DNA of 64,000 nucleotides from an uncultured cyanobacterium (GCA_963744145.1 CAVUSO010000001.1:4320001-4384000), one strand, 5' to 3'; shown: positions 21,924 to 34,024, counted from the stretch's first letter. Translations and numbers: made by a program. The notes: generated by a model from the sequence alone, not told the origin.

Positions 21924-22037
21924 GTTCAGTGGAGTGCTAATTTTAGCCAATATTAACCAATCTACTGGTATTTTCCAGTAGGTTGGGAGGAAAAAAATTC
22001 TGTTCGCGGCTAATTGCGGAAATTGAGAAAGTTCGCG

Positions 22038-22598
22038 ATGCTTGTAAAAAAATATTATTGGCAAAAGGCAAAATTAGGTTTATGGGCAAGTCTAGCTGGT
22101 ATGATGGTGGCTTGTACCGCTAATAATTCAATAGGACCAGTTTCAATTAATAGTCGCTATACTGATGAACAACCGACTTTAAGTGGAAATGGTCGGTTTT
22201 TAGCTTTCGTTTCTAATCGCAATGGTCGTCGCGATATTATGTTGTATGACTTACAACAGCAGCAGTTTGTCGATGTTCCAGGATTAAATCCGAATGGGGC
22301 GATCGCGGAAAATCCCAGTCTTAGTTATAGTAGTCGTTATATTGTTTACCTGACTAGCGACCAAGGAAAACCGATTATTGTTCTGTATGATCGGACGATT
22401 AAGCAAGCACAGATTCTCACTCAAGGTTATTGGGGTTGGGTCAGAAATCCCAGTATTAGTCCTGATGGTCGTTATGTGGTGTTTGAAACCAGTACCAGGG
22501 GACAATGGGATATTGAGGTACTCGATCGCGGTCCGAATATTGAACTAGATCGAGTTGAGGGGAATACATCGGAAACTGGGATCAAAAATTCACTGTAA
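22038..22598 (+). CDS. TolB-like PD40-repeat lipoprotein
   Basis: Lipobox VAC; PTLSGNGRFLAF and PSISPDGRYVVF repeats. Confidence 0.85.
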   Translation: MLVKKYYWQKAKLGLWASLAGMMVACTANNSIGPVSINSRYTDEQPTLSGNGRFLAFVSNRNGRRDIMLYDLQQQQFVDVPGLNPNGAIAENPSLSYSSRYIVYLTSDQGKPIIVLYDRTIKQAQILTQGYWGWVRNPSISPDGRYVVFETSTRGQWDIEVLDRGPNIELDRVEGNTSETGIKNSL

Positions 22599-22613: not shown

Positions 22614-23150
22614 GTGAAAAATTTTGTCAGATCATCGGGTTGGTTATGGATGGTAGCGATCGCTTCTTTATTAAGCAGTTGTAGTAGTTATCCCCGTTTA
22701 CTGAGTTTTCCCTTTGATCCGGGGGGAAGAAGTTTAAATAGTCCTTCATCCCAATTAACTCCGAACATATCTGGTCGCTATATTGTATTTGTGTCCGATC
22801 GCAGTGGGACTCAAGATATTTATCTGTTTGATGGGATTGATCAAAGATTAATCGATTTACCAGGATTAAATTCACTAGATGCGATCGCTTCCCATCCGGG
22901 TATTTCTGGAGATGGACGTTATATCGTTTTTGCTGCTACTCGTCAGGGACGTTCTGGGATTTATTTATACGATCGAGAAACTCGTCAATTGCGTAATCTC
23001 ACGGAAAACCTCCAAGCTGAAGTGAGAAATCCGACTATTAGTGCGGATGGTAATATTATTGCTTTTGAATCTAGTGCTAATGGTCATTGGGATATTTTAG
23101 TTTACGATCGAGCTGGTCAACCCTTAAATGTACCGATCAATCCACGCTGA
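22614..23150 (+). CDS. TolB-like PD40-repeat lipoprotein
   Basis: LSSC lipobox; PGISGDGRYIVF, PTISADG. Confidence 0.85.
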   Translation: MKNFVRSSGWLWMVAIASLLSSCSSYPRLLSFPFDPGGRSLNSPSSQLTPNISGRYIVFVSDRSGTQDIYLFDGIDQRLIDLPGLNSLDAIASHPGISGDGRYIVFAATRQGRSGIYLYDRETRQLRNLTENLQAEVRNPTISADGNIIAFESSANGHWDILVYDRAGQPLNVPINPR

Positions 23151-23600: not shown

Positions 23601-24002
23601 ATGAGTTATTTATTAGATACTAATATTGTTTCTTTTGCGATTCGGCGAAATTCTCAAGTCCTTCAAAATATTAAAAAAGTTGAAACTGAAGAAAATATCT
23701 TCATTAGTTGCATTACCTATTTTGAAATTAAGCGAGGATTTTTAGCGGTTGATGCTCCTAAACAAAAGGCAAGATTTGAAGAATTTTGTCAAATTTATCC
23801 GATTATTTTATTAGATGATTTAGAAATTTTAGAAAAAGCATCCGAAATTTATGCTAATCTGAGATTAAGAGGTTTGCCGATCCAAACTGAAGATATTTTA
23901 ATTGCTGCTACTGCTATAGTTAAAGGTTTAATTATGGTTTCTAATGATACAGATTTAGTAAGAATTGAAGGTTTAAATTTAGAAAATTGGGCTCAATTAT
24001 AA
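23601..24002 (+). CDS. vapC: VapC/PIN-domain toxin
   Basis: YLLDTNI, ITYFEI, DILIAATA, SNDTD. Confidence 0.9.
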   Translation: MSYLLDTNIVSFAIRRNSQVLQNIKKVETEENIFISCITYFEIKRGFLAVDAPKQKARFEEFCQIYPIILLDDLEILEKASEIYANLRLRGLPIQTEDILIAATAIVKGLIMVSNDTDLVRIEGLNLENWAQL

Positions 24003-24060: not shown

Positions 24061-24552
24061 GTGGTGAGTAGAAATTCGTATCTATTAATTATAATCGGAT
24101 TAATTATAAGTGGCTGTAATTCATATTTGAATCAACCACCTTTATTAGGTGGTGGTCTGAATAGTCGGACACCAGATGAATATCCTTCTTTTAGTGCGGA
24201 TGGTCGCTATTTAGCTTTTGCATCCGATCGCAATATGACTCGGAGTATTTATTTATATGATTTGCAACAACATAGTCTGATCCCTTTACCAAACTTAAAT
24301 CGCGTTGATTCTAGTCAAGATCAACCTGCGCTTAGTGCAGATGGTCGGTTTATTGCTTATGTTTCCACTGAACGTGGTAAAACTGATATATTTAGATACG
24401 ATCGGTTTACGAAAACATCCCAATTACTAACTTATAATATTCGGAATTCAGTCCGACATCCGACTATTACAGGAGATGGAAATTTGGTATCATTTGAATC
24501 GAACCGTTCTGGTCAATGGCACATTGAAATTATCGATCTTCGGGGTAAATAA
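24061..24552 (+). CDS. TolB-like PD40-repeat lipoprotein
   Basis: ISGC lipobox; PSFSADGRYLAF, PALSADGRFIAY. Confidence 0.85.
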   Translation: MVSRNSYLLIIIGLIISGCNSYLNQPPLLGGGLNSRTPDEYPSFSADGRYLAFASDRNMTRSIYLYDLQQHSLIPLPNLNRVDSSQDQPALSADGRFIAYVSTERGKTDIFRYDRFTKTSQLLTYNIRNSVRHPTITGDGNLVSFESNRSGQWHIEIIDLRGK

Positions 24553-25940: not shown

Positions 25941-26058
25941 TTGGTTGGGCAGGTTTATGATAGTTATCTGTTTGGATCAGAATTAATTGGTGAACCTGCC
26001 CCTACAAATCCTGGTTCATTGTGAGCATAAATTCATTCACCTGCCCTTACAAATCCTG
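25941..26058. repeat. long-loop GTAG REP element plus partial second copy
   Basis: GGGCAGGTT...AACCTGCCCCTAC; reverse complement of 30461-30538. Confidence 0.85.
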
Positions 26059-26311
26059 TTAATCTTGTAATCCTCTCATCCTGATCGATTTTTTGGTGAA
26101 TCCCTGTAGGGTTACCGCTGAATTTGCTACACACAAATAACCGCATATCCGTCCCACTCCAAGAATTTTGCTGTATGGCTGAATTATCTAGGCTCGCGAT
26201 CGCTAGATGGCTCGGATATGTTTTAGGTGTCTTTTGGTCTGTTTTTCTCAATAATTGGTAAACTTTTCAGTGTAGCGATCGCATATCGAAAATTATTAAT
26301 ATTGTAAGTAT

Positions 26312-27103
26312 ATGAGCATTCAGGAAAAATTCAAAACTGTATGTGCTTTGAAAATATTTGAACCAGGTTATGAAAAGCCGTGGTTAACAGACCCTAATAA
26401 ATGTGATCAGATCCAAAATAAGCTTTCCTATTTTAATCCTAACCATAGCAATAGTTCAGAACATATTGATCAAGTTTATAAAGCGTTAACTAGAGGAGTT
26501 GGTCTAGTTGAAGCAGGGATAGAATGGGAAAATCCCGCAATTGGTGAAAAACCTAGACCCCGAAATAAAAGTAGTATCCTTGATGAAAGCAATATAGTTG
26601 ATGAAAATACGACAACTGGTAAAGAAAAGTCTCGGCGAACTGATACTGATAAATACCGAGGTATTCAATGGAAACTGGTAATCGTTTATGTTGGCTTTGA
26701 GATTATATCCAAAACATTAATGATGGATAAGTTTAATCGGACAGTTCCACCAGGAATGTATGAGCAATTCCTTGAAAAATGCGCTCTGCCTGATTACAAA
26801 CCAATAGCCGCGCCAGAGAAAAAAAGCCTTACTAAATGGCTTGATAAAGAAGATGGAGCGTTGGCAGAATTTTTGGGGATAGGGGCGGGAGATAAGAAAG
26901 CTATTGATCGATGGTTAGTTGAATCAAAACCTGTAGATTCCTGGGAACAAGCATACAAGCTAGCAAAAGCCATGAGAAATGCTTCTGCACATGGATTTCT
27001 ACTACCAAGTAGGATTGGTAAATGGGGATTAAAACATGGATTTCGTAAGTTAACTGATGATTTAGCACTAATTGTTACTGAAGGACTGAGTAAGATTACT
27101 TAA
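26312..27103 (+). CDS. putative HEPN-domain protein
   Basis: ExxxK (FEIISK) and RxxxxH (MRNASAHG) motifs in a helical protein. Confidence 0.6.
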   Translation: MSIQEKFKTVCALKIFEPGYEKPWLTDPNKCDQIQNKLSYFNPNHSNSSEHIDQVYKALTRGVGLVEAGIEWENPAIGEKPRPRNKSSILDESNIVDENTTTGKEKSRRTDTDKYRGIQWKLVIVYVGFEIISKTLMMDKFNRTVPPGMYEQFLEKCALPDYKPIAAPEKKSLTKWLDKEDGALAEFLGIGAGDKKAIDRWLVESKPVDSWEQAYKLAKAMRNASAHGFLLPSRIGKWGLKHGFRKLTDDLALIVTEGLSKIT

Positions 27104-27145
27104 TTAGTCTTTTGAATTTTGTCTAAATTGATTTTGTCAAAGGTA

Positions 27146-27175
27146 TTGACAAGTAGTTGTGATTCAGCATATTAT
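27146..27175 (+). promoter_or_regulatory. sigma70-type promoter with overlapping palindrome
   Basis: TTGACA-N18-TATTAT; TTGTCAA-AGGTA-TTGACAA inverted repeat over the -35. Confidence 0.55.
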
Positions 27176-27177
27176 TA

Positions 27178-27716
27178 AGTTGATAAATACACAAAGAGCT
27201 GAAGACCGCAAATTTTCGCGCTTCTTGTGTATTTTTCAACTTTTGTGGCTAAATTAATAAGATTGCAAGTCCAAACACAGATAGTTGGTATCCGGCGCAT
27301 CAAATCAGGGTATTGACAATCTTGACGGTTGGTTGTAAAGTAGGTTCAATGTTTATTTGTCATTAGGCAATTGATTGAAAAAGCCCTAGTTTTCATTGCC
27401 ATTGCACAAATACAGCATATTCCTGATTGATGAAGTACACTCTGGAAGTGAAGATCACCTATTTTTAGTGCTATCTAGTGTACTTTTTTGAGCAAATATG
27501 CTGCATACAGAGACTCTGAAGGCAGCGAATTTACGCTCTTCAGCAGGTTCAATTAGGTGCAATTGGCTCAGAAAACCCTCGTTTTCACGGCTATTGTATA
27601 AGTACACAAAGAGCTGAAGACCGCAAGTTTTCGCGCTTCTTGTGTACTATCCAATATTTGTCGCTAAATTAATAAGGTTGTGAGTCCAAACGCAGACAGT
27701 TGGTATCCAACGCAAA
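27178..27716 (+). ncRNA. putative structured ncRNA cluster (repeated hairpins)
   Basis: About 105-bp direct repeat (27188-27293 / 27603-27708) plus diverged hairpins with compensatory changes; no convincing ORF. Confidence 0.5.
27313..27341 (+). promoter_or_regulatory. second sigma70-type promoter inside the hairpin cluster
   Basis: TTGACA-N17-TAAAGT. Confidence 0.5.
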
Positions 27717-27849
27717 AAGCAGGAGCTTAGTCAATACCCATACCATCAACCTATAATGAAAGATGTTCCATGTAGCGTAAGCTAATATTTGGTAGATTTT
27801 ATGTCTTAAATACTTGTCTCTATTTATCCAAAAAAAAAGGAGCATTATT

Positions 27850-28212
27850 ATGGATGAAGTAGTAAAAAAAATAGCCGCTATTGGTCTACCAGGTATCATC
27901 TTTGTAATCACAATGGCCACCACAGGTTTAGGTGGAGCAGCTGCAATTACCAAAGCCTTATATCTATTAGGTCCTGGTGGGATGATTGGCGGTATTGTTT
28001 TTCTGGGAATAATCGGATTAGTTTCGGATACTTTGACTAAATATGGGTTGACAGAATTTCTGAAAGCCGTATATGTAGAAAGGTTAGCAAAAGGCGAATC
28101 TGCGGTAGATTTATGCAAAGAGATTGATTATTTGTTTATTACTAATGAGCTTAAGCTAGTGCTTAAAGACCATTTGTCTACTATTACTAATCAAGGAAAC
28201 AGAATCATGTAA
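27850..28212 (+). CDS. small Gly-rich membrane protein
   Basis: AAGGAG RBS before ATG; GLPG...GPGGMIGG hydrophobic segments. Confidence 0.75.
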   Translation: MDEVVKKIAAIGLPGIIFVITMATTGLGGAAAITKALYLLGPGGMIGGIVFLGIIGLVSDTLTKYGLTEFLKAVYVERLAKGESAVDLCKEIDYLFITNELKLVLKDHLSTITNQGNRIM

Positions 28213-28248
28213 TCGCACTCTTCCAGCAAAAATGACCGTTGATTTTTT

Positions 28249-28363
28249 GGCGTTGCTTAATCAGGGTATGAAAATCCTGTAGGGGCGCAAGAGCCATGCG
28301 CCCTGGGAGCAAGAGCCATACGCCCCTACAAATTATTTATTCATACCGTAAATCAGCAACGCC
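28249..28363. mobile_element. MITE-like element with internal REP
   Basis: TIRs GGCGTTGCT..GGTATGAA / TTCATACC..AGCAACGCC enclosing GTAGGGGCG...CGCCCCTAC; right end repeated at 30406-30443. Confidence 0.8.
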
Positions 28364-28364
28364 C

Positions 28365-28454
28365 CAATTTGCTCATAAGGTCAAAAAGAGATATCAACTC
28401 AAACTAATTGTTTACGAACCGTTAACTGAGGAGATTGTGCAATGGATAAATTAG
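28365..28454 (+). pseudogene. xisH: 3' remnant of xisH
   Basis: QFAHKVKKRYQLKLIVYEPLTEEIVQWIN*, overlapping the xisI start. Confidence 0.75.
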
Positions 28455-28777
28455 AGCATTATAGAATCTGTATCCAAGCCATCTTAGAACAGCATAGCCA
28501 ATATAAATCCAATGACGAAAATATCGAAAGCGCACTTTTTTTTGATCCAATACGCGATCACTACCAATTGATGCGGATCGGCTGGAAAGGCTTAAAGAGA
28601 ATCTATTACACTATCCTACATTTCGATATCAAAGAGGGCAAAATTTGGCTTCAGCAAAATACCACTGATAGCGATGTAGGTGAAGAACTATTGGCAATGG
28701 GTATTCCCAAAGAAGATATTATTCTGGGTTTACATCCTCCCTACAAGCGTCCTTATACCAAATATGGTGTTGCTTAA
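28442..28777 (+). CDS. xisI: XisI family protein
   Basis: DHYQLMRIGW, HFDIKEGKIWLQQNTTD, GIPKEDIILGLHPP. Confidence 0.93.
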   Translation: MDKLEHYRICIQAILEQHSQYKSNDENIESALFFDPIRDHYQLMRIGWKGLKRIYYTILHFDIKEGKIWLQQNTTDSDVGEELLAMGIPKEDIILGLHPPYKRPYTKYGVA

Positions 28778-28889
28778 AACCTCATGAACGATGTTCTCAC
28801 AGGTAAATTGATCTAGCCAATAATTCCCGATCGCATTTTTTGCTACTATCAAAAACCAATTAAAAATACAATAACAGGAGATTTTTATT

Positions 28890-29459
28890 ATGTCTCTGAT
28901 GACAGTTAAAGACTTAGAGCAAGTTCAAAGTACACTCTCTGAGGCGGGTTTAGATTATCAATTAGAATTAGAAAATGGGAGAATTCAAATTGTGGGGCCA
29001 TCAGATATCGTATCTAGCGAAATTGGGATTCGTCTCAGTGCTTTTCTGTTTGCCTGGGTCAATCCTCGCCGTCTCGGTCGAGTATTTGACTCCGCAGGTG
29101 GTTTTATGATGCCCGATACCAATCTGAAAGCCCCCGATGTTTCTTTCGTGCGAGCATCCCGTCTGCGCCAAAGTGTGCGTTACTTTGCCGAATTGGTGCC
29201 GGATTTGGTGGTGGAAATCAAATCTCAAAGCGATCGCGTCAAGTCTATAGAAAAGAAAATTCGGAAATTTTTAGAATTGGGAGCTACAGTCGGTATTCTC
29301 ATCGATCCGGATGAGTTAACTGTTACTGTTTATCGCGATCGCAGCGAACCGCTTGTGCTAGAAAATGAAGATATCTTAACAGTTCCAGAACTTTTCCCTG
29401 GTTGGGAATTACCTCTTAAGGAACTGTGGCCCCCTGTTTTTACCGAAGACGAAGTTTAA
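28890..29459 (+). CDS. Uma2 (DUF820) family endonuclease
   Basis: APDVSF, PDLVVEIKS, LIDP, LFPGW. Confidence 0.92.
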   Translation: MSLMTVKDLEQVQSTLSEAGLDYQLELENGRIQIVGPSDIVSSEIGIRLSAFLFAWVNPRRLGRVFDSAGGFMMPDTNLKAPDVSFVRASRLRQSVRYFAELVPDLVVEIKSQSDRVKSIEKKIRKFLELGATVGILIDPDELTVTVYRDRSEPLVLENEDILTVPELFPGWELPLKELWPPVFTEDEV

Positions 29460-29685
29460 AGAAATAACTTGGCTGTGTATTTAACTAATTTTTATTATTC
29501 CAAAACTAACCAGGATTTAGATAACCCATTACGCGATCCGCTAAACACTGGAAGTTTGCCCGATTATACAGTAAAATGAATACGCGAGTTTTCTGAAATA
29601 CCCACAATGCCCAGAAAAGTAATGACTGAACCGCATCCGTCAGAGTACAATCTAATGGTTAGTTAGACCCCATTCAAGCAATAGG

Positions 29686-30279
29686 ATGGTAAGAAAAATG
29701 ATCGCAGTAGCAACAGCAACGATAGCAACAGAACCAACAAGAAAGAAATTCACGGTAGAGGAATATTACAAGCTGGGTGAAGTTGGGATAATTGGACCTG
29801 ATGAACGGACGGAATTAATTGATGGGGATATCATTCTTATGTCACCGATGGGACGTCGTCATTTTGGTTTTTTAATTCGACTGAATAGAATTTTTTCCAA
29901 GCTTTTTAATGATCGTGCTTTAGTAGCGATACAAGGTCCAGTCAGACTAAACGGAGAATTACAACCAGAACCCGATCTATTAATTTTGAAACCTTGTGGA
30001 GATGATTACATAGAATCAGATATCCAAATCCAAGACATTTATTTACTAATTGAAGTAGCGGATACCACTATTAACCATGACCGCAATGTGAAGTCAGTCC
30101 TATATGGCAGAGCTGGGATTATTGAGCTTTGGATTGTAGATATAAATGCTGAATTAGTAGAGGTGTATCGCAATCCTGGTCCGAACGGTTATGAAAGTAT
30201 CCAACAATTCAGACGCGGCGAAAGTATCTCACCCCTGGCATTTCCAGATTTAGTAATTAGTGTTGACGATATTTTGTAG
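29686..30279 (+). CDS. Uma2 (DUF820) family endonuclease
   Basis: FTVEEYYKL, ELIDG, PEPD, LIEVADT, YGRAGIIELWIVD. Confidence 0.92.
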   Translation: MVRKMIAVATATIATEPTRKKFTVEEYYKLGEVGIIGPDERTELIDGDIILMSPMGRRHFGFLIRLNRIFSKLFNDRALVAIQGPVRLNGELQPEPDLLILKPCGDDYIESDIQIQDIYLLIEVADTTINHDRNVKSVLYGRAGIIELWIVDINAELVEVYRNPGPNGYESIQQFRRGESISPLAFPDLVISVDDIL

Positions 30280-31465: not shown

Positions 31466-32476
31466 TTGCAGGAAAAAAGAATAATGAGCAATTTTGCTGG
31501 GATAAGTTCAAAAGCGACCAATGAACTCTCGTGTTTTCTTCCTAATGATCTTGGAGATTTGAGTGATATTCAAAGAGCAATTCCTCGTATTGCTAAAGAT
31601 GAAAGGATTACTAGCCAGATAGAGCAATCTCTCCCTCAGATTCCAAGTAAACACGCTCTTTATCTGGGTGATGCCCGTGAAATGTCAGTGATTAGACCTC
31701 AGAGCGTTCACTTAGTATTGACATCACCACCATACTGGACACTCAAAGCATACAACAAGGTGAATGGGCAACTTGGCTACATTGACAGCTACGAAAACTT
31801 TCTTGATGAACTTGATAAGGTTTGGCAAAGATGTTTTGAGGTTTTAGTACCCGGTGGTCGGTTGATTTGCGTGGTAGGGGATGTCTGTCTTTCTAGAAGA
31901 AAAAATGGTGGACGACATACTGTAGTGCCACTCCATGCCTCGATCCAAGAGCATTGTCGCTCGATCGGTTTTGATAATCTTGCCCCAATCATTTGGCACA
32001 AAATCGCTAATATATCACTTGAGTCCGAGGGAAATGGGGCGTCTTTCCTGGGCAAGCCCTATGAGCCAAATGGTGTTGTCAAAAACGATATAGAGTTTAT
32101 ACTTATGCAACGCAAGCCAGGAGGCTATCGAACACCAGATTTAACCACAAAAATTCTCAGCATTATTCCTGAAAGATATCATCGTCAATGGTTCCAGCAG
32201 ATTTGGAGTGGTATTACTGGTGCCTCAACCAGGTATCATCCTGCGCCCTACCCCTTAGAGCTTGCCTCAAGGTTGATCCGGATGTTCTCATTTGTTGGCG
32301 ATACTGTACTTGACCCTTTTTTTGGCACAGGAACAACAACATTGGCAGCAGCTAACTGTGGTCGAAATAGCATTGGCTATGAAATAGACGAAAGTTATTT
32401 AACTTACGCCCATGAACGCATTGCTACACAAGTAACAAGCTTGTTCAATCAGTCTGTTGTTTCTCTGTATAATTAA
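31466..32476 (+). CDS. beta-class N4-cytosine/N6-adenine DNA methyltransferase
   Basis: TSPPY precedes DPFFGTGTT; HPAPYP. Start may be the ATG at 31484. Confidence 0.92.
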   Translation: MQEKRIMSNFAGISSKATNELSCFLPNDLGDLSDIQRAIPRIAKDERITSQIEQSLPQIPSKHALYLGDAREMSVIRPQSVHLVLTSPPYWTLKAYNKVNGQLGYIDSYENFLDELDKVWQRCFEVLVPGGRLICVVGDVCLSRRKNGGRHTVVPLHASIQEHCRSIGFDNLAPIIWHKIANISLESEGNGASFLGKPYEPNGVVKNDIEFILMQRKPGGYRTPDLTTKILSIIPERYHRQWFQQIWSGITGASTRYHPAPYPLELASRLIRMFSFVGDTVLDPFFGTGTTTLAAANCGRNSIGYEIDESYLTYAHERIATQVTSLFNQSVVSLYN

Positions 32477-33397: not shown

Positions 33398-33688
33398 ATG
33401 GCCATTAAAACAAATAGTACAACTCGACCTTACACGCTAAATTTGCGGATTAAGCCAGAAGAACGCAATTTAATCGATCGGGCTGCCAAAGTGCAAGGCA
33501 AGAATAGAACTGATTTTATTTTGGAGGCTGCAAGGAATGCCGCAGAAGAAACCTTGCTAGAACGGAGTATTTTGGAGACTAGTCCAGAAGCTTATGCAGA
33601 ATTTATCGCGCTTCTAGATGCCCCACCCCAACCAAATGAACGTTTACGCAAAACTATGCAGATGACCCCACCTTGGGACAAAGAATGA
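33398..33688 (+). CDS. DUF1778 / TacA-type antitoxin
   Basis: LNLRIKPEERNLIDRAA...TDFILEAA...LDAPPQPNERL..PW. Confidence 0.9.
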   Translation: MAIKTNSTTRPYTLNLRIKPEERNLIDRAAKVQGKNRTDFILEAARNAAEETLLERSILETSPEAYAEFIALLDAPPQPNERLRKTMQMTPPWDKE

Positions 33689-33712
33689 GTTTAAGATCAC
33701 CTGAACCTCTAG

Positions 33713-34024
33713 TTAGTCATACTGCACTACAGCCTCAGTCATGACTCTATCTCGAAAATAAATACTTAACTCATTCGGGGTTCTTAAGTCTATTTTTCTC
33801 CCTTTCATTAATTCTGAAAGTTCCATTTCCATTCTAACTATCTGAAAAAATCCTGGAGTTTTTCCTGGCTCAAATTCTACTAAGAAATCAATATCACTCT
33901 CTGATGTAAAATCATCCCGCAATACTGAACCAAATAAAGATAATTTCTGAATATGGTGGTGCTGGCAAAATTGCGCTATTTCTTTCTTGGGAATTTCAAT
34001 CGGTAATGTTTTTGTTTCACTCAT
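33713..34024 (-). CDS. minimal nucleotidyltransferase (MntA-type antitoxin)
   Basis: LFGSVLRDDFTSESDIDFLVEF. Confidence 0.9.
   Translation of the reverse strand: MSETKTLPIEIPKKEIAQFCQHHHIQKLSLFGSVLRDDFTSESDIDFLVEFEPGKTPGFFQIVRMEMELSELMKGRKIDLRTPNELSIYFRDRVMTEAVVQYD

Follow-up and report, generated by a model that had tools for sequence, protein, structure and literature searches.

The stretch of DNA analyzed here (64,000 nucleotides of one strand from an uncultured cyanobacterium, GCA_963744145.1 CAVUSO010000001.1:4320001-4384000; hereafter the window) contains a region of 747 nt without genes (27104-27850). It lies between an open reading frame (ORF) for 263 amino acids (26312-27103, + strand), whose product is referred to as P0001, and an ORF for 120 amino acids (27851-28212, + strand). 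The original prediction, made from the sequence alone, had described four related hairpins in this region and had likened them to C4-type antisense RNA modules. Our analysis points instead to a two-part module, in which the gene for a predicted HEPN-type RNase is followed by putative promoter-driven hairpin RNAs under selection for structure.

The hairpin array

Repeat analysis of the window revealed a direct repeat of 117 nt (27183-27299 and 27598-27714, 87% identity). Two further direct repeats, 27367-27414 with 27559-27606 (75%) and 27339-27350 with 27542-27553, are situated between its copies. Hairpins 1 and 4 belong to a unit that is present twice and consists of a hairpin and a tail of about 57 nt. 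The protein gene and the array comprise the following features:

26312-27103, + strand: gene for P0001 (263 amino acids), a predicted single-domain HEPN-fold RNase and putative partner of the hairpin RNA
27146-27175, + strand: promoter P1, TTGACA-18 nt-TATTAT, 11/12 matches to consensus; transcription start predicted near 27182
27177-27242, + strand: hairpin 1, z = -6.5; covariance-model match at 27184-27237 with 58.8 bits; covariation
27243-27299, + strand: tail of unit 1, repeated after hairpin 4, with a small hairpin at 27284-27296 (GUUGG-UAU-CCGGC)
27313-27341, + strand: promoter P2, TTGACA-17 nt-TAAAGT, containing GGTATTGACAA
27348-27412, + strand: leader of unit 2, with a hairpin of its own (arms 27354-27371 and 27395-27412, z = -2.5)
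27413-27503, no strand assigned: inverted-repeat element (hairpin 2) resembling miniature inverted-repeat transposable elements (MITEs), inserted at TA inside the 5' arm of the hairpin of unit 2
27506-27546, + strand: hairpin 3, 21/26 core positions equal to hairpin 1, without the AU-rich outer stem
27545-27598, + strand: leader of unit 3, which duplicates that of unit 2 in tandem; hairpin with z = -2.3
27592-27655, + strand: hairpin 4, z = -6.2; covariance-model match at 27599-27652 with 51.5 bits
27656-27714, + strand: tail of unit 3, a copy of the first tail (88% over 51 nt), with a small hairpin at 27699-27711

As originally claimed, hairpins 1 and 4 share a core, in which 2 of 49 positions differ, while their outer stems have diverged in sequence and still pair in both copies. 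The tails differ at 6 of 51 positions. RNA folding energies amount to -25.4 kcal/mol for hairpin 1 and -23.6 kcal/mol for hairpin 4, and none of 200 shuffled sequences proved as stable. The small hairpin in the tail carries the 3' arm CCGGC in the first copy and CCAAC in the second. Both arms pair with GUUGG, two U.G pairs being replaced by U-A, and this change preserves pairing solely when the tail is read as + strand RNA. In the 7.7-Mb genome, BLAST and the covariance model described below detected the 117-nt unit at these two local sites only. Hairpin 1 lies 74 nt past the stop codon of the P0001 gene and is followed by a U run.

Two minor observations concern the same unit. In its minimum-energy fold, hairpin 1 exposes a 7-nt loop, CCGCAAA (27206-27212), one substitution away from the anticodon loop (CUGCAAA) of this genome's tRNA-Cys; this likeness stems from one fold of one copy and is kept as speculation, and in hairpin 4 one more base pair forms and leaves a loop of 5 nt. 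The best match of the array in phage DNA comprises 39 nt of the unit 1 tail (27254-27292), which are 87% identical to largely intergenic DNA next to an endonuclease gene in the marine Synechococcus phages Syn19 and Syn2. With an E-value of 0.05, this match is treated as chance.

Downstream of P2, the stretch before hairpin 3 (27336-27412) is homologous to that before hairpin 4 (27539-27606), so that P2 appears to be followed by a tandem pair of leader-plus-hairpin units. Hairpin 3 can be aligned, without inversion, to the core shared by hairpins 1 and 4, and it is, as judged from this alignment, a degenerate third copy of that core. It folds weakly (z = -1.4, with 17 of 200 shuffles as good) and is not matched by covariance model R1. 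The original prediction had also drawn attention to a segment of hairpin 3 that is complementary to hairpins 1 and 4, as a sign of possible antisense pairing. Hairpin 3 is indeed present and the complementarity is real (17 nt at 88%, with a second match at 82%), but its antisense significance is lost, because the 3' arm of a degenerate third copy is complementary to the shared 5' arm in any case. A 25-nt match of hairpin 3 in another genome (G339) resides inside a histidine-kinase coding region and was dismissed as chance.

Hairpin 2 (z = -4.1) had been taken for a diverged version of hairpin 1, which does not hold. It is a MITE-like insertion that stands outside the RNA system, and both terminal inverted repeats and dispersed copies were found. 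Its left terminal repeat occurs at five other sites in the same genome and in 11 of 400 other genomes of the order. In those other genomes it forms both ends of inverted-repeat elements of 150-250 bp bordered by TA. At G000:C1:2943115, a sister copy of about 95 nt has the same interior as hairpin 2, and the flanking TA/CA dinucleotides suggest a TA target duplication. A MITE-like family of 95- to 250-bp elements, bordered by TA and with terminal repeats beginning TACAGCATATTCC, can be described from 27413-27503 of the window and from G000:C1:2943115-2943170, 1158317, 5589254, 5011392 and C2:15170.

P0001 and its linkage to the hairpin RNAs

Database searches with P0001 yielded no match in Pfam (E ≤ 10), PHROG, PADLOC or NCBIfam. 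When 32 family members were compared with Pfam, none matched any HEPN or Abi family at E ≤ 0.1 and nothing relevant was returned. All 38 close homologs are cyanobacterial and without assigned names, and a profile search gathered 201 clusters at 50% identity. No paralog was found in the same genome, nor were relatives found in phage records, plasmids or IMG/VR contigs. In an alignment of 24 sequences (A1), the motif KLAKA-RN-x-x-A-H-G is invariant. It includes RNxxxH, formed in P0001 by R222, N223 and H227 (R222-N-A-S-A-H227), and conforms to the Rx4-6H catalytic pattern of the HEPN superfamily. Among 32 distant members, R222 and H227 are at least 90% conserved, and G228 is invariant.

The AlphaFold (AF2) model of P0001 is all helical, with a predicted local distance difference test score (pLDDT) of 84.5. 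In a wide fold search independent of Foldseek (VIA), 12 of the 13 top chains carried HEPN in their title or belonged to the HEPN-MNT complex 5yep, with Z scores from 8.4 to 6.6; the chain at rank 12 was untitled. The best match was 2hsb (Z 8.4, root-mean-square deviation 3.7, 117 aligned positions). The other top matches included HEPN-MNT toxins, the HEPN domain of sacsin and the C-terminal domain of AbiA, with AbiV, Csm6, LsoA and RnlA lower down. AbiF (8VZ6) was absent from the fold matches listed, which is still compatible with a relation. A second look at the fold ranked a HEPN toxin first. In a protein atlas, P0001 fell next to unnamed clusters only, the nearest named family being HEPN_RiboL-PSP at 0.82, which serves as a lead only.

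When P0001 was modeled as a homodimer, a score of 0.81 was reached, compared with 0.00 for the best of three controls; the runs agreed in at least 79% of contacts and the pLDDT of the partner was at least 81. The mark set for this prediction is reached by 20 of 30 proteins solved as one-chain pairs, as it is by 1 of 23 with single-chain structures, and since HEPN dimers have already been solved, the result for P0001 may partly reflect likeness to known structures. The predicted interface includes the invariant residues 116, 120, 124 and 226-229 and is thus placed at the RNxxxH motif. Motif, fold and dimer prediction taken together make it probable that P0001 represents a new HEPN-family RNase, with RNase activity predicted from motif and fold. 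In the distant relatives P0061, P0062, P0068, P0069, P0074 and P0135, proteins of 530-950 amino acids, the domain shares its chain with PQQ/WD40 beta-propellers or leucine-rich repeats. Fusions of this kind are also seen with effector domains of conflict systems, and we count these architectures in favor of such a role.

The surroundings of the gene were compared in 24 loci from species-representative genomes, 21 loci from metagenomes and three more obtained by genome search. In 28 of 37 distinct homologous loci, the window included, TTGAC is found within 100 nt past the stop codon, and these loci span Microcoleus-, Okeania/Trichodesmium-, Symploca-, Lyngbya- and Nostocales-type genomes. In the homologous loci a hairpin comes after the promoter, and its sequence is clade-specific. 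A short type of about 50 nt is present in the window, in Microcoleus, Symploca and Nostocales-type loci and in L061, and a long type of 107-153 nt in Okeania/Trichodesmium- and Lyngbya-type loci. Two or more hairpin modules were observed in the window, L031, L037 (three), L038, L040, L042, L043, L057-L060, L061, L062 and G113, and paralogous 'a' and 'b' hairpin types are both kept across Nostocales-type loci. Among the nine loci without TTGAC nearby, L042 has a matching promoter displaced by an insertion, and L061 combines two hairpin modules with the variant TTGATT. The promoter-hairpin module seems to have been lost from L035 and L044. The other five are the more distant Nostocales members L047 and L048 and the still more distant L065-L067 (26-30% identity). 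L076 and L077, which stem from the genome search and stand outside the 37, are also without the module.

P1 and P2 have the longer word GGTATTGACAA in common, and GGTATTGAC is conserved at the matching place after the stop codon in Microcoleus- and Nostocales-type loci. As a side observation, conservation of GGTATTGAC across clades extends well beyond the -35 hexamer and might mark the site of a regulator. Also note that GGGTATTGAC (27308-27317), which includes the -35 box of P2, is repeated without mismatch in inverted orientation towards the opposite end of the array (27730-27739).

The protein genes downstream vary from locus to locus and encode an integrase, XisH, SnoaL, ParE/Phd or proteins without assignment. 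A tyrosine recombinase gene follows in Lyngbya-type loci, while most loci have no recombinase. The ORF downstream in the window (27851-28212) is absent from all other loci, and no conservation was found in the regions upstream of the P0001-family loci. Judged by these comparisons, protein and RNA appear to form a mobile two-part module whose components co-migrate through unrelated neighborhoods. Among 150 other genomes of the order, the P0001 family is represented in four (G014, G077, G113 and G123), in G113 by a remnant only. G077 has a promoter and a hairpin of another subtype, and none is recognizable in G014 and G123. At G113:C1:3453718-3454267 (L073/L078), two hairpin modules reside beside the truncated remnant of the protein gene, which covers residues ~143-218 and ends before RNxxxH. 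RNA genes that outlast a decayed protein gene fit an antitoxin role. In Microcoleus-type loci (L025:1369-1587 and the same place in L027 and L049-L054), an ORF for 72 amino acids without Pfam match is located about 300 nt past the hairpin. It appears to be recurrent and is absent from the window.

Covariation in the hairpin stems

Selection on structure was assessed with an alignment of 23 short hairpins (A6), prepared with MAFFT and not fitted to structure. Left out were L043a (identical to L042a), the truncated copy L062:2420, hairpin 3 of the window, the duplicates L051, L052, L063 and L064, the hairpin of L074 and all long-type hairpins. A6 reveals an outer stem of 11 bp and a conserved unpaired core, CU.A...CAA, in which C16, T17, A19, C26, A27 and A28 (numbering of hairpin 1) are conserved across clades. 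In the stem, 92.5% of the cells are paired, compared with 76.8% in column shuffles. Changes on both sides were seen in 9 of 11 pairs (56 cells), and none of 500 shuffles reached the covariation score. In the Nostocales sequences alone, two-sided changes affected 4 of 12 pairs, again with no shuffle out of 500 scoring as high. Relatedness of the sequences inflates shuffle tests of this kind. When the partners were slid against each other as a control, pairing of the A6 stem dropped to 32-50%, and these slid controls, together with the number of pair types, argue that the covariation signal is real.

The long Okeania-type hairpins were treated separately. Their alignment (A7) loses register at the 3' end and was set aside for pair counting, and the helices of the minimum-energy folds were tabulated instead. 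All eight keep an unbroken outer helix of 12-15 bp with differing sequences, and all eight begin with one or two G.U pairs, which would be mismatches if read on the other strand.

A covariance model of the short type (R1) was built and genomes were searched with it, along the lines proposed with the original prediction. R1 gives 40-66 bits when the + strand is scored, compared with 19-30 bits for the - strand. In the 7.7-Mb genome it matches hairpins 1 and 4 only, and among 150 other genomes of the order it found one (G113), with two matches. Even with filters off, no match was obtained in the long-hairpin loci or in L074, and R1 consequently describes the short hairpin type only. Homologous hairpins at the same position across genera and an outer stem that covaries in 9 of 11 pairs thus support the claim of selection on structure. 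The original prediction had left it undecided whether RNA or single-stranded DNA is the selected form. The conserved sigma-70-type promoters on the + strand favor RNA.

Proposed function and alternative explanations

A type III toxin-antitoxin system pairs an RNase-toxin gene with an adjoining, repeated RNA gene. Here, adjacency was observed in 28 of 37 loci and two to three units in many of them, and the RNase is predicted. Since a predicted dimeric RNase and presumably promoter-driven, repeated, structured RNAs co-migrate, the module may best be read as a type III-like toxin-antitoxin or abortive-infection system that follows the logic of AbiF/AbiFr with a different protein family, a different RNA and a different gene order. 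We consider the chances of this proposal to be about even; transcription, binding of the RNA by the protein, toxicity and neutralization are inferred from the comparative evidence given above.

In detail, the protein part would consist of about 240-260 amino acids with a single HEPN-type RNase domain (catalytic RNxxxH) and would act as a homodimer. The RNA part would be a small hairpin RNA encoded one to three times, each time behind a near-consensus sigma-70 promoter directly past the protein gene. In the window, P1 would drive hairpin 1 and its tail, and P2 the tandem leader-plus-hairpin units, i.e., first hairpin 3, which is degenerate and split by the MITE-like element, and then hairpin 4 with its tail. 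The hairpin RNA, produced in excess from its own promoter, would bind the HEPN dimer via the unpaired core CU.A...CAA above the covarying stem and keep the RNase silent. Upon a drop in RNA supply or displacement of the RNA, for example during phage infection, the RNase would be freed and would cleave cellular RNA.

The module resembles ToxIN, CptIN and TenpIN in having repeated RNA units beside a (predicted) RNase toxin in a mobile two-component arrangement. The toxins of those systems are not known to be HEPN proteins. In ToxIN-type systems, short tandem repeats stand ahead of the toxin gene within a single operon, and the toxin excises them, whereas the units described here follow the protein gene as longer hairpins that have a promoter or leader each.

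With AbiF/AbiFr the module shares a (predicted) single-HEPN protein, a predicted dimer with the active sites at the interface and an adjoining small structured RNA, often in two motif copies and with a sigma-70 promoter; the proposed logic of neutralization is the same. According to PMC12737573, where PDB 8VZ6 is cited for AbiF, RNA antitoxins for HEPN RNases (AbiF/AbiFr) have been recognized only recently and are proposed to lie at the root of Cas13, and the AbiF antitoxin attaches to every HEPN monomer, with bases from an unpaired bulge obstructing the active site. For Clostridioides difficile, 10.1101/2025.04.15.648962 describes AbiFr/RCd22 with two motif copies, upstream of the toxin gene and co-transcribed with it. 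Unlike AbiF, P0001 has no match to the Pfam family Abi_2 (AbiD/F) at E ≤ 10, and the abiF motif (RF03085) was found neither in the window (Rfam scan, E ≤ 10) nor in ten related loci (E ≤ 0.1). Furthermore, the RNA-linked clade described here is restricted to cyanobacteria. Small dimeric HEPN toxins are also known from HEPN-MNT systems (type VII; 5yep, 7ae2), which are among the closest matches to the fold of P0001 (Z 7.5-7.8). Their neutralizer is a protein nucleotidyltransferase, whereas no MNT gene adjoins the P0001 gene and an RNA gene is present instead.

Several observations weigh against the proposed RNase-antitoxin pair. Concerning the protein, Foldseek returned nothing from the PDB at E ≤ 0.001 for the P0001 model, a sequence-profile search of the PDB gave one chance match only, and the Z scores in the wide fold search (at most 8.4) are middling for a helical protein, as values below 8-13 are common among helical bundles. 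As to the RNA, the promoter scan of the window alone found 6 sites with 4.8 +/- 2.4 expected, which is not above chance, so that the promoter argument rests on conservation across loci; a simple terminator scan of the window gave 0 sites. The tally of 11 G.U and 12 A.C cells in the short hairpins gives no hint of the strand, and module 2 of the window is partly decayed, hairpin 3 being degenerate and bearing the MITE-like element. Regarding linkage, many of the compared loci are close relatives and their counts overstate independence. Moreover, L035, L044, L047, L048, L076 and L077 have an intact RNxxxH and no recognizable promoter and hairpin downstream, which implies that the RNA is not obligatory in every branch. 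Gene order also differs from that of the known pairs: the RNA lies downstream with its own promoter, whereas that of AbiF lies upstream and is co-transcribed, and the repeats of ToxIN-type systems likewise precede the toxin gene.

Alternatively, the hairpins could be ordinary regulatory or 3'-end elements, serving termination or stability, with outward promoters or trans-acting small RNAs and no direct action on the protein. We regard this as unlikely, though not far-fetched. The position of hairpin 1 shortly past the stop codon and before a U run would agree with it, as would the six family members without RNA, and a 5' stem-loop at the transcription start is a common design of small RNAs. 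However, a conserved promoter separates stop codon and hairpin in 28 of 37 loci, the unpaired core is conserved across clades, and both the 'a' and the 'b' paralogs are retained in Nostocales-type loci. In addition, the downstream genes are not conserved, and RNA genes persist beside a decayed protein gene.

The RNA could also be a cofactor and not an inhibitor, with the hairpin as a protein-binding handle and the variable tail or leader guiding or activating the HEPN RNase in a minimal Cas13-like or sensor arrangement. The evidence from linkage and covariation applies here just as well, and a conserved handle, variable flanks and promoter-driven units resemble the logic of CRISPR RNAs. The AbiF lineage reportedly gave rise to Cas13 (PMC12737573). 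HEPN RNase and handle-like hairpin RNA are indeed common to the module and Cas13 (type VI CRISPR). Unlike Cas13, P0001 has one HEPN domain and not two, and neither a repeat-spacer array nor adaptation genes nor evidence for a guide function was seen. The tails in the window are 88% identical copies and not distinct spacers, the best phage match is unconvincing, and hairpin 1 pairs with neighboring mRNAs no better than shuffled sequences do. We therefore rate a cofactor role as quite improbable. A related proposal, which we hold to be improbable as well, is that of a second, independently evolved partnership of HEPN RNase and RNA outside the AbiF/Cas13 lineage, in which the hairpin would be a handle and either the core would act as a pseudo-substrate or the flanks would program the enzyme.

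It is very improbable that hairpins 1 and 4 are repeats acting at the level of DNA, be it through amplification as repetitive extragenic palindromes or MITEs or as sites where an integrative element recombines. Hairpin 2 is a repeat of this kind, and Lyngbya-type loci do carry a recombinase gene downstream. Yet the genome has no further copies of hairpins 1 and 4, orthologous hairpins stand beside orthologous genes at the same position across genera, the conserved core is strand-asymmetric and most loci have no recombinase.

Scarcely tenable is the C4-type antisense module of the original prediction, in which hairpin loops would pair with complementary sites such as hairpin 3 and control the downstream gene: small hairpin RNAs with repeated complementary segments (17 nt, 82-88% for hairpin 3) do recall the C4 RNA of P1/P7-type phages, but the complementarity is intrinsic to any hairpin repeat and a by-product of copy number, hairpin 2 is no member of the module, the downstream gene is not conserved, none of the 17 neighboring ORFs has a match to a PHROG annotated with a phage immunity function, and a scan of 26000-29000 (Rfam 15, E ≤ 10) returned neither C4 nor anything else of relevance, with four chance-level matches elsewhere. 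Antisense pairing with the neighbors was rejected as well, as hairpin 1 yields -22.7 kcal/mol with the upstream mRNA and -23.9 kcal/mol with the downstream ORF, compared with shuffle means of -25.2 and -24.5 kcal/mol.

The family of P0001 and its RNA is without a model in Pfam, Rfam, PADLOC or NCBIfam, and no description of the family or of a comparable RNA-antitoxin system in cyanobacteria was found in the open-access literature. Within the literature searched, the module may represent the first cyanobacterial RNA-antitoxin system of this type. If the proposed RNase-antitoxin pair is real, the distinct protein family, the different RNA and the inverted gene order would mean that the pairing of HEPN proteins with RNA arose more than once or diversified far beyond what is known. 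The module has spread in filamentous cyanobacteria, with bloom- and mat-forming Microcoleus, Okeania/Trichodesmium, Lyngbya and Nostocales among its carriers, and constitutes a small, testable pair of a protein of about 240-260 amino acids and an RNA of about 55-150 nt. Should the RNA direct or gate cleavage, the module would offer a compact natural scaffold of about 240 amino acids for RNA-controlled RNases and a fresh case of CRISPR-like systems arising from toxin-antitoxin pairs.

As to the further surroundings in the window, the product of the downstream ORF (27851-28212) has no assigned function and no match in Pfam, PHROGs, PADLOC or NCBIfam; it is unrelated to P0001 and its sequence resembles that of a membrane protein. 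Past this ORF, two units of a GC-rich palindromic repeat of the GGGGCGCAAGAGCCATGCGCCC type are located at 28250-28335, which we take to resemble the short dispersed repeats common in heterocyst-forming cyanobacteria. Genes of the toxin-antitoxin and restriction type crowd the neighborhood (23601-24002, 28442-30279, 31466-32476 and 33398-34024); they encode a PIN-domain protein, XisI, two Uma2 endonuclease-like proteins, an N6/N4 DNA methylase, a TacA-like antitoxin and an MNT-like nucleotidyltransferase. Three short adjacent ORFs (22014-22598, 22614-23150 and 24061-24552) each contain PD40 beta-propeller repeats and may be one fragmented propeller gene, with the PIN gene situated between the second and the third.

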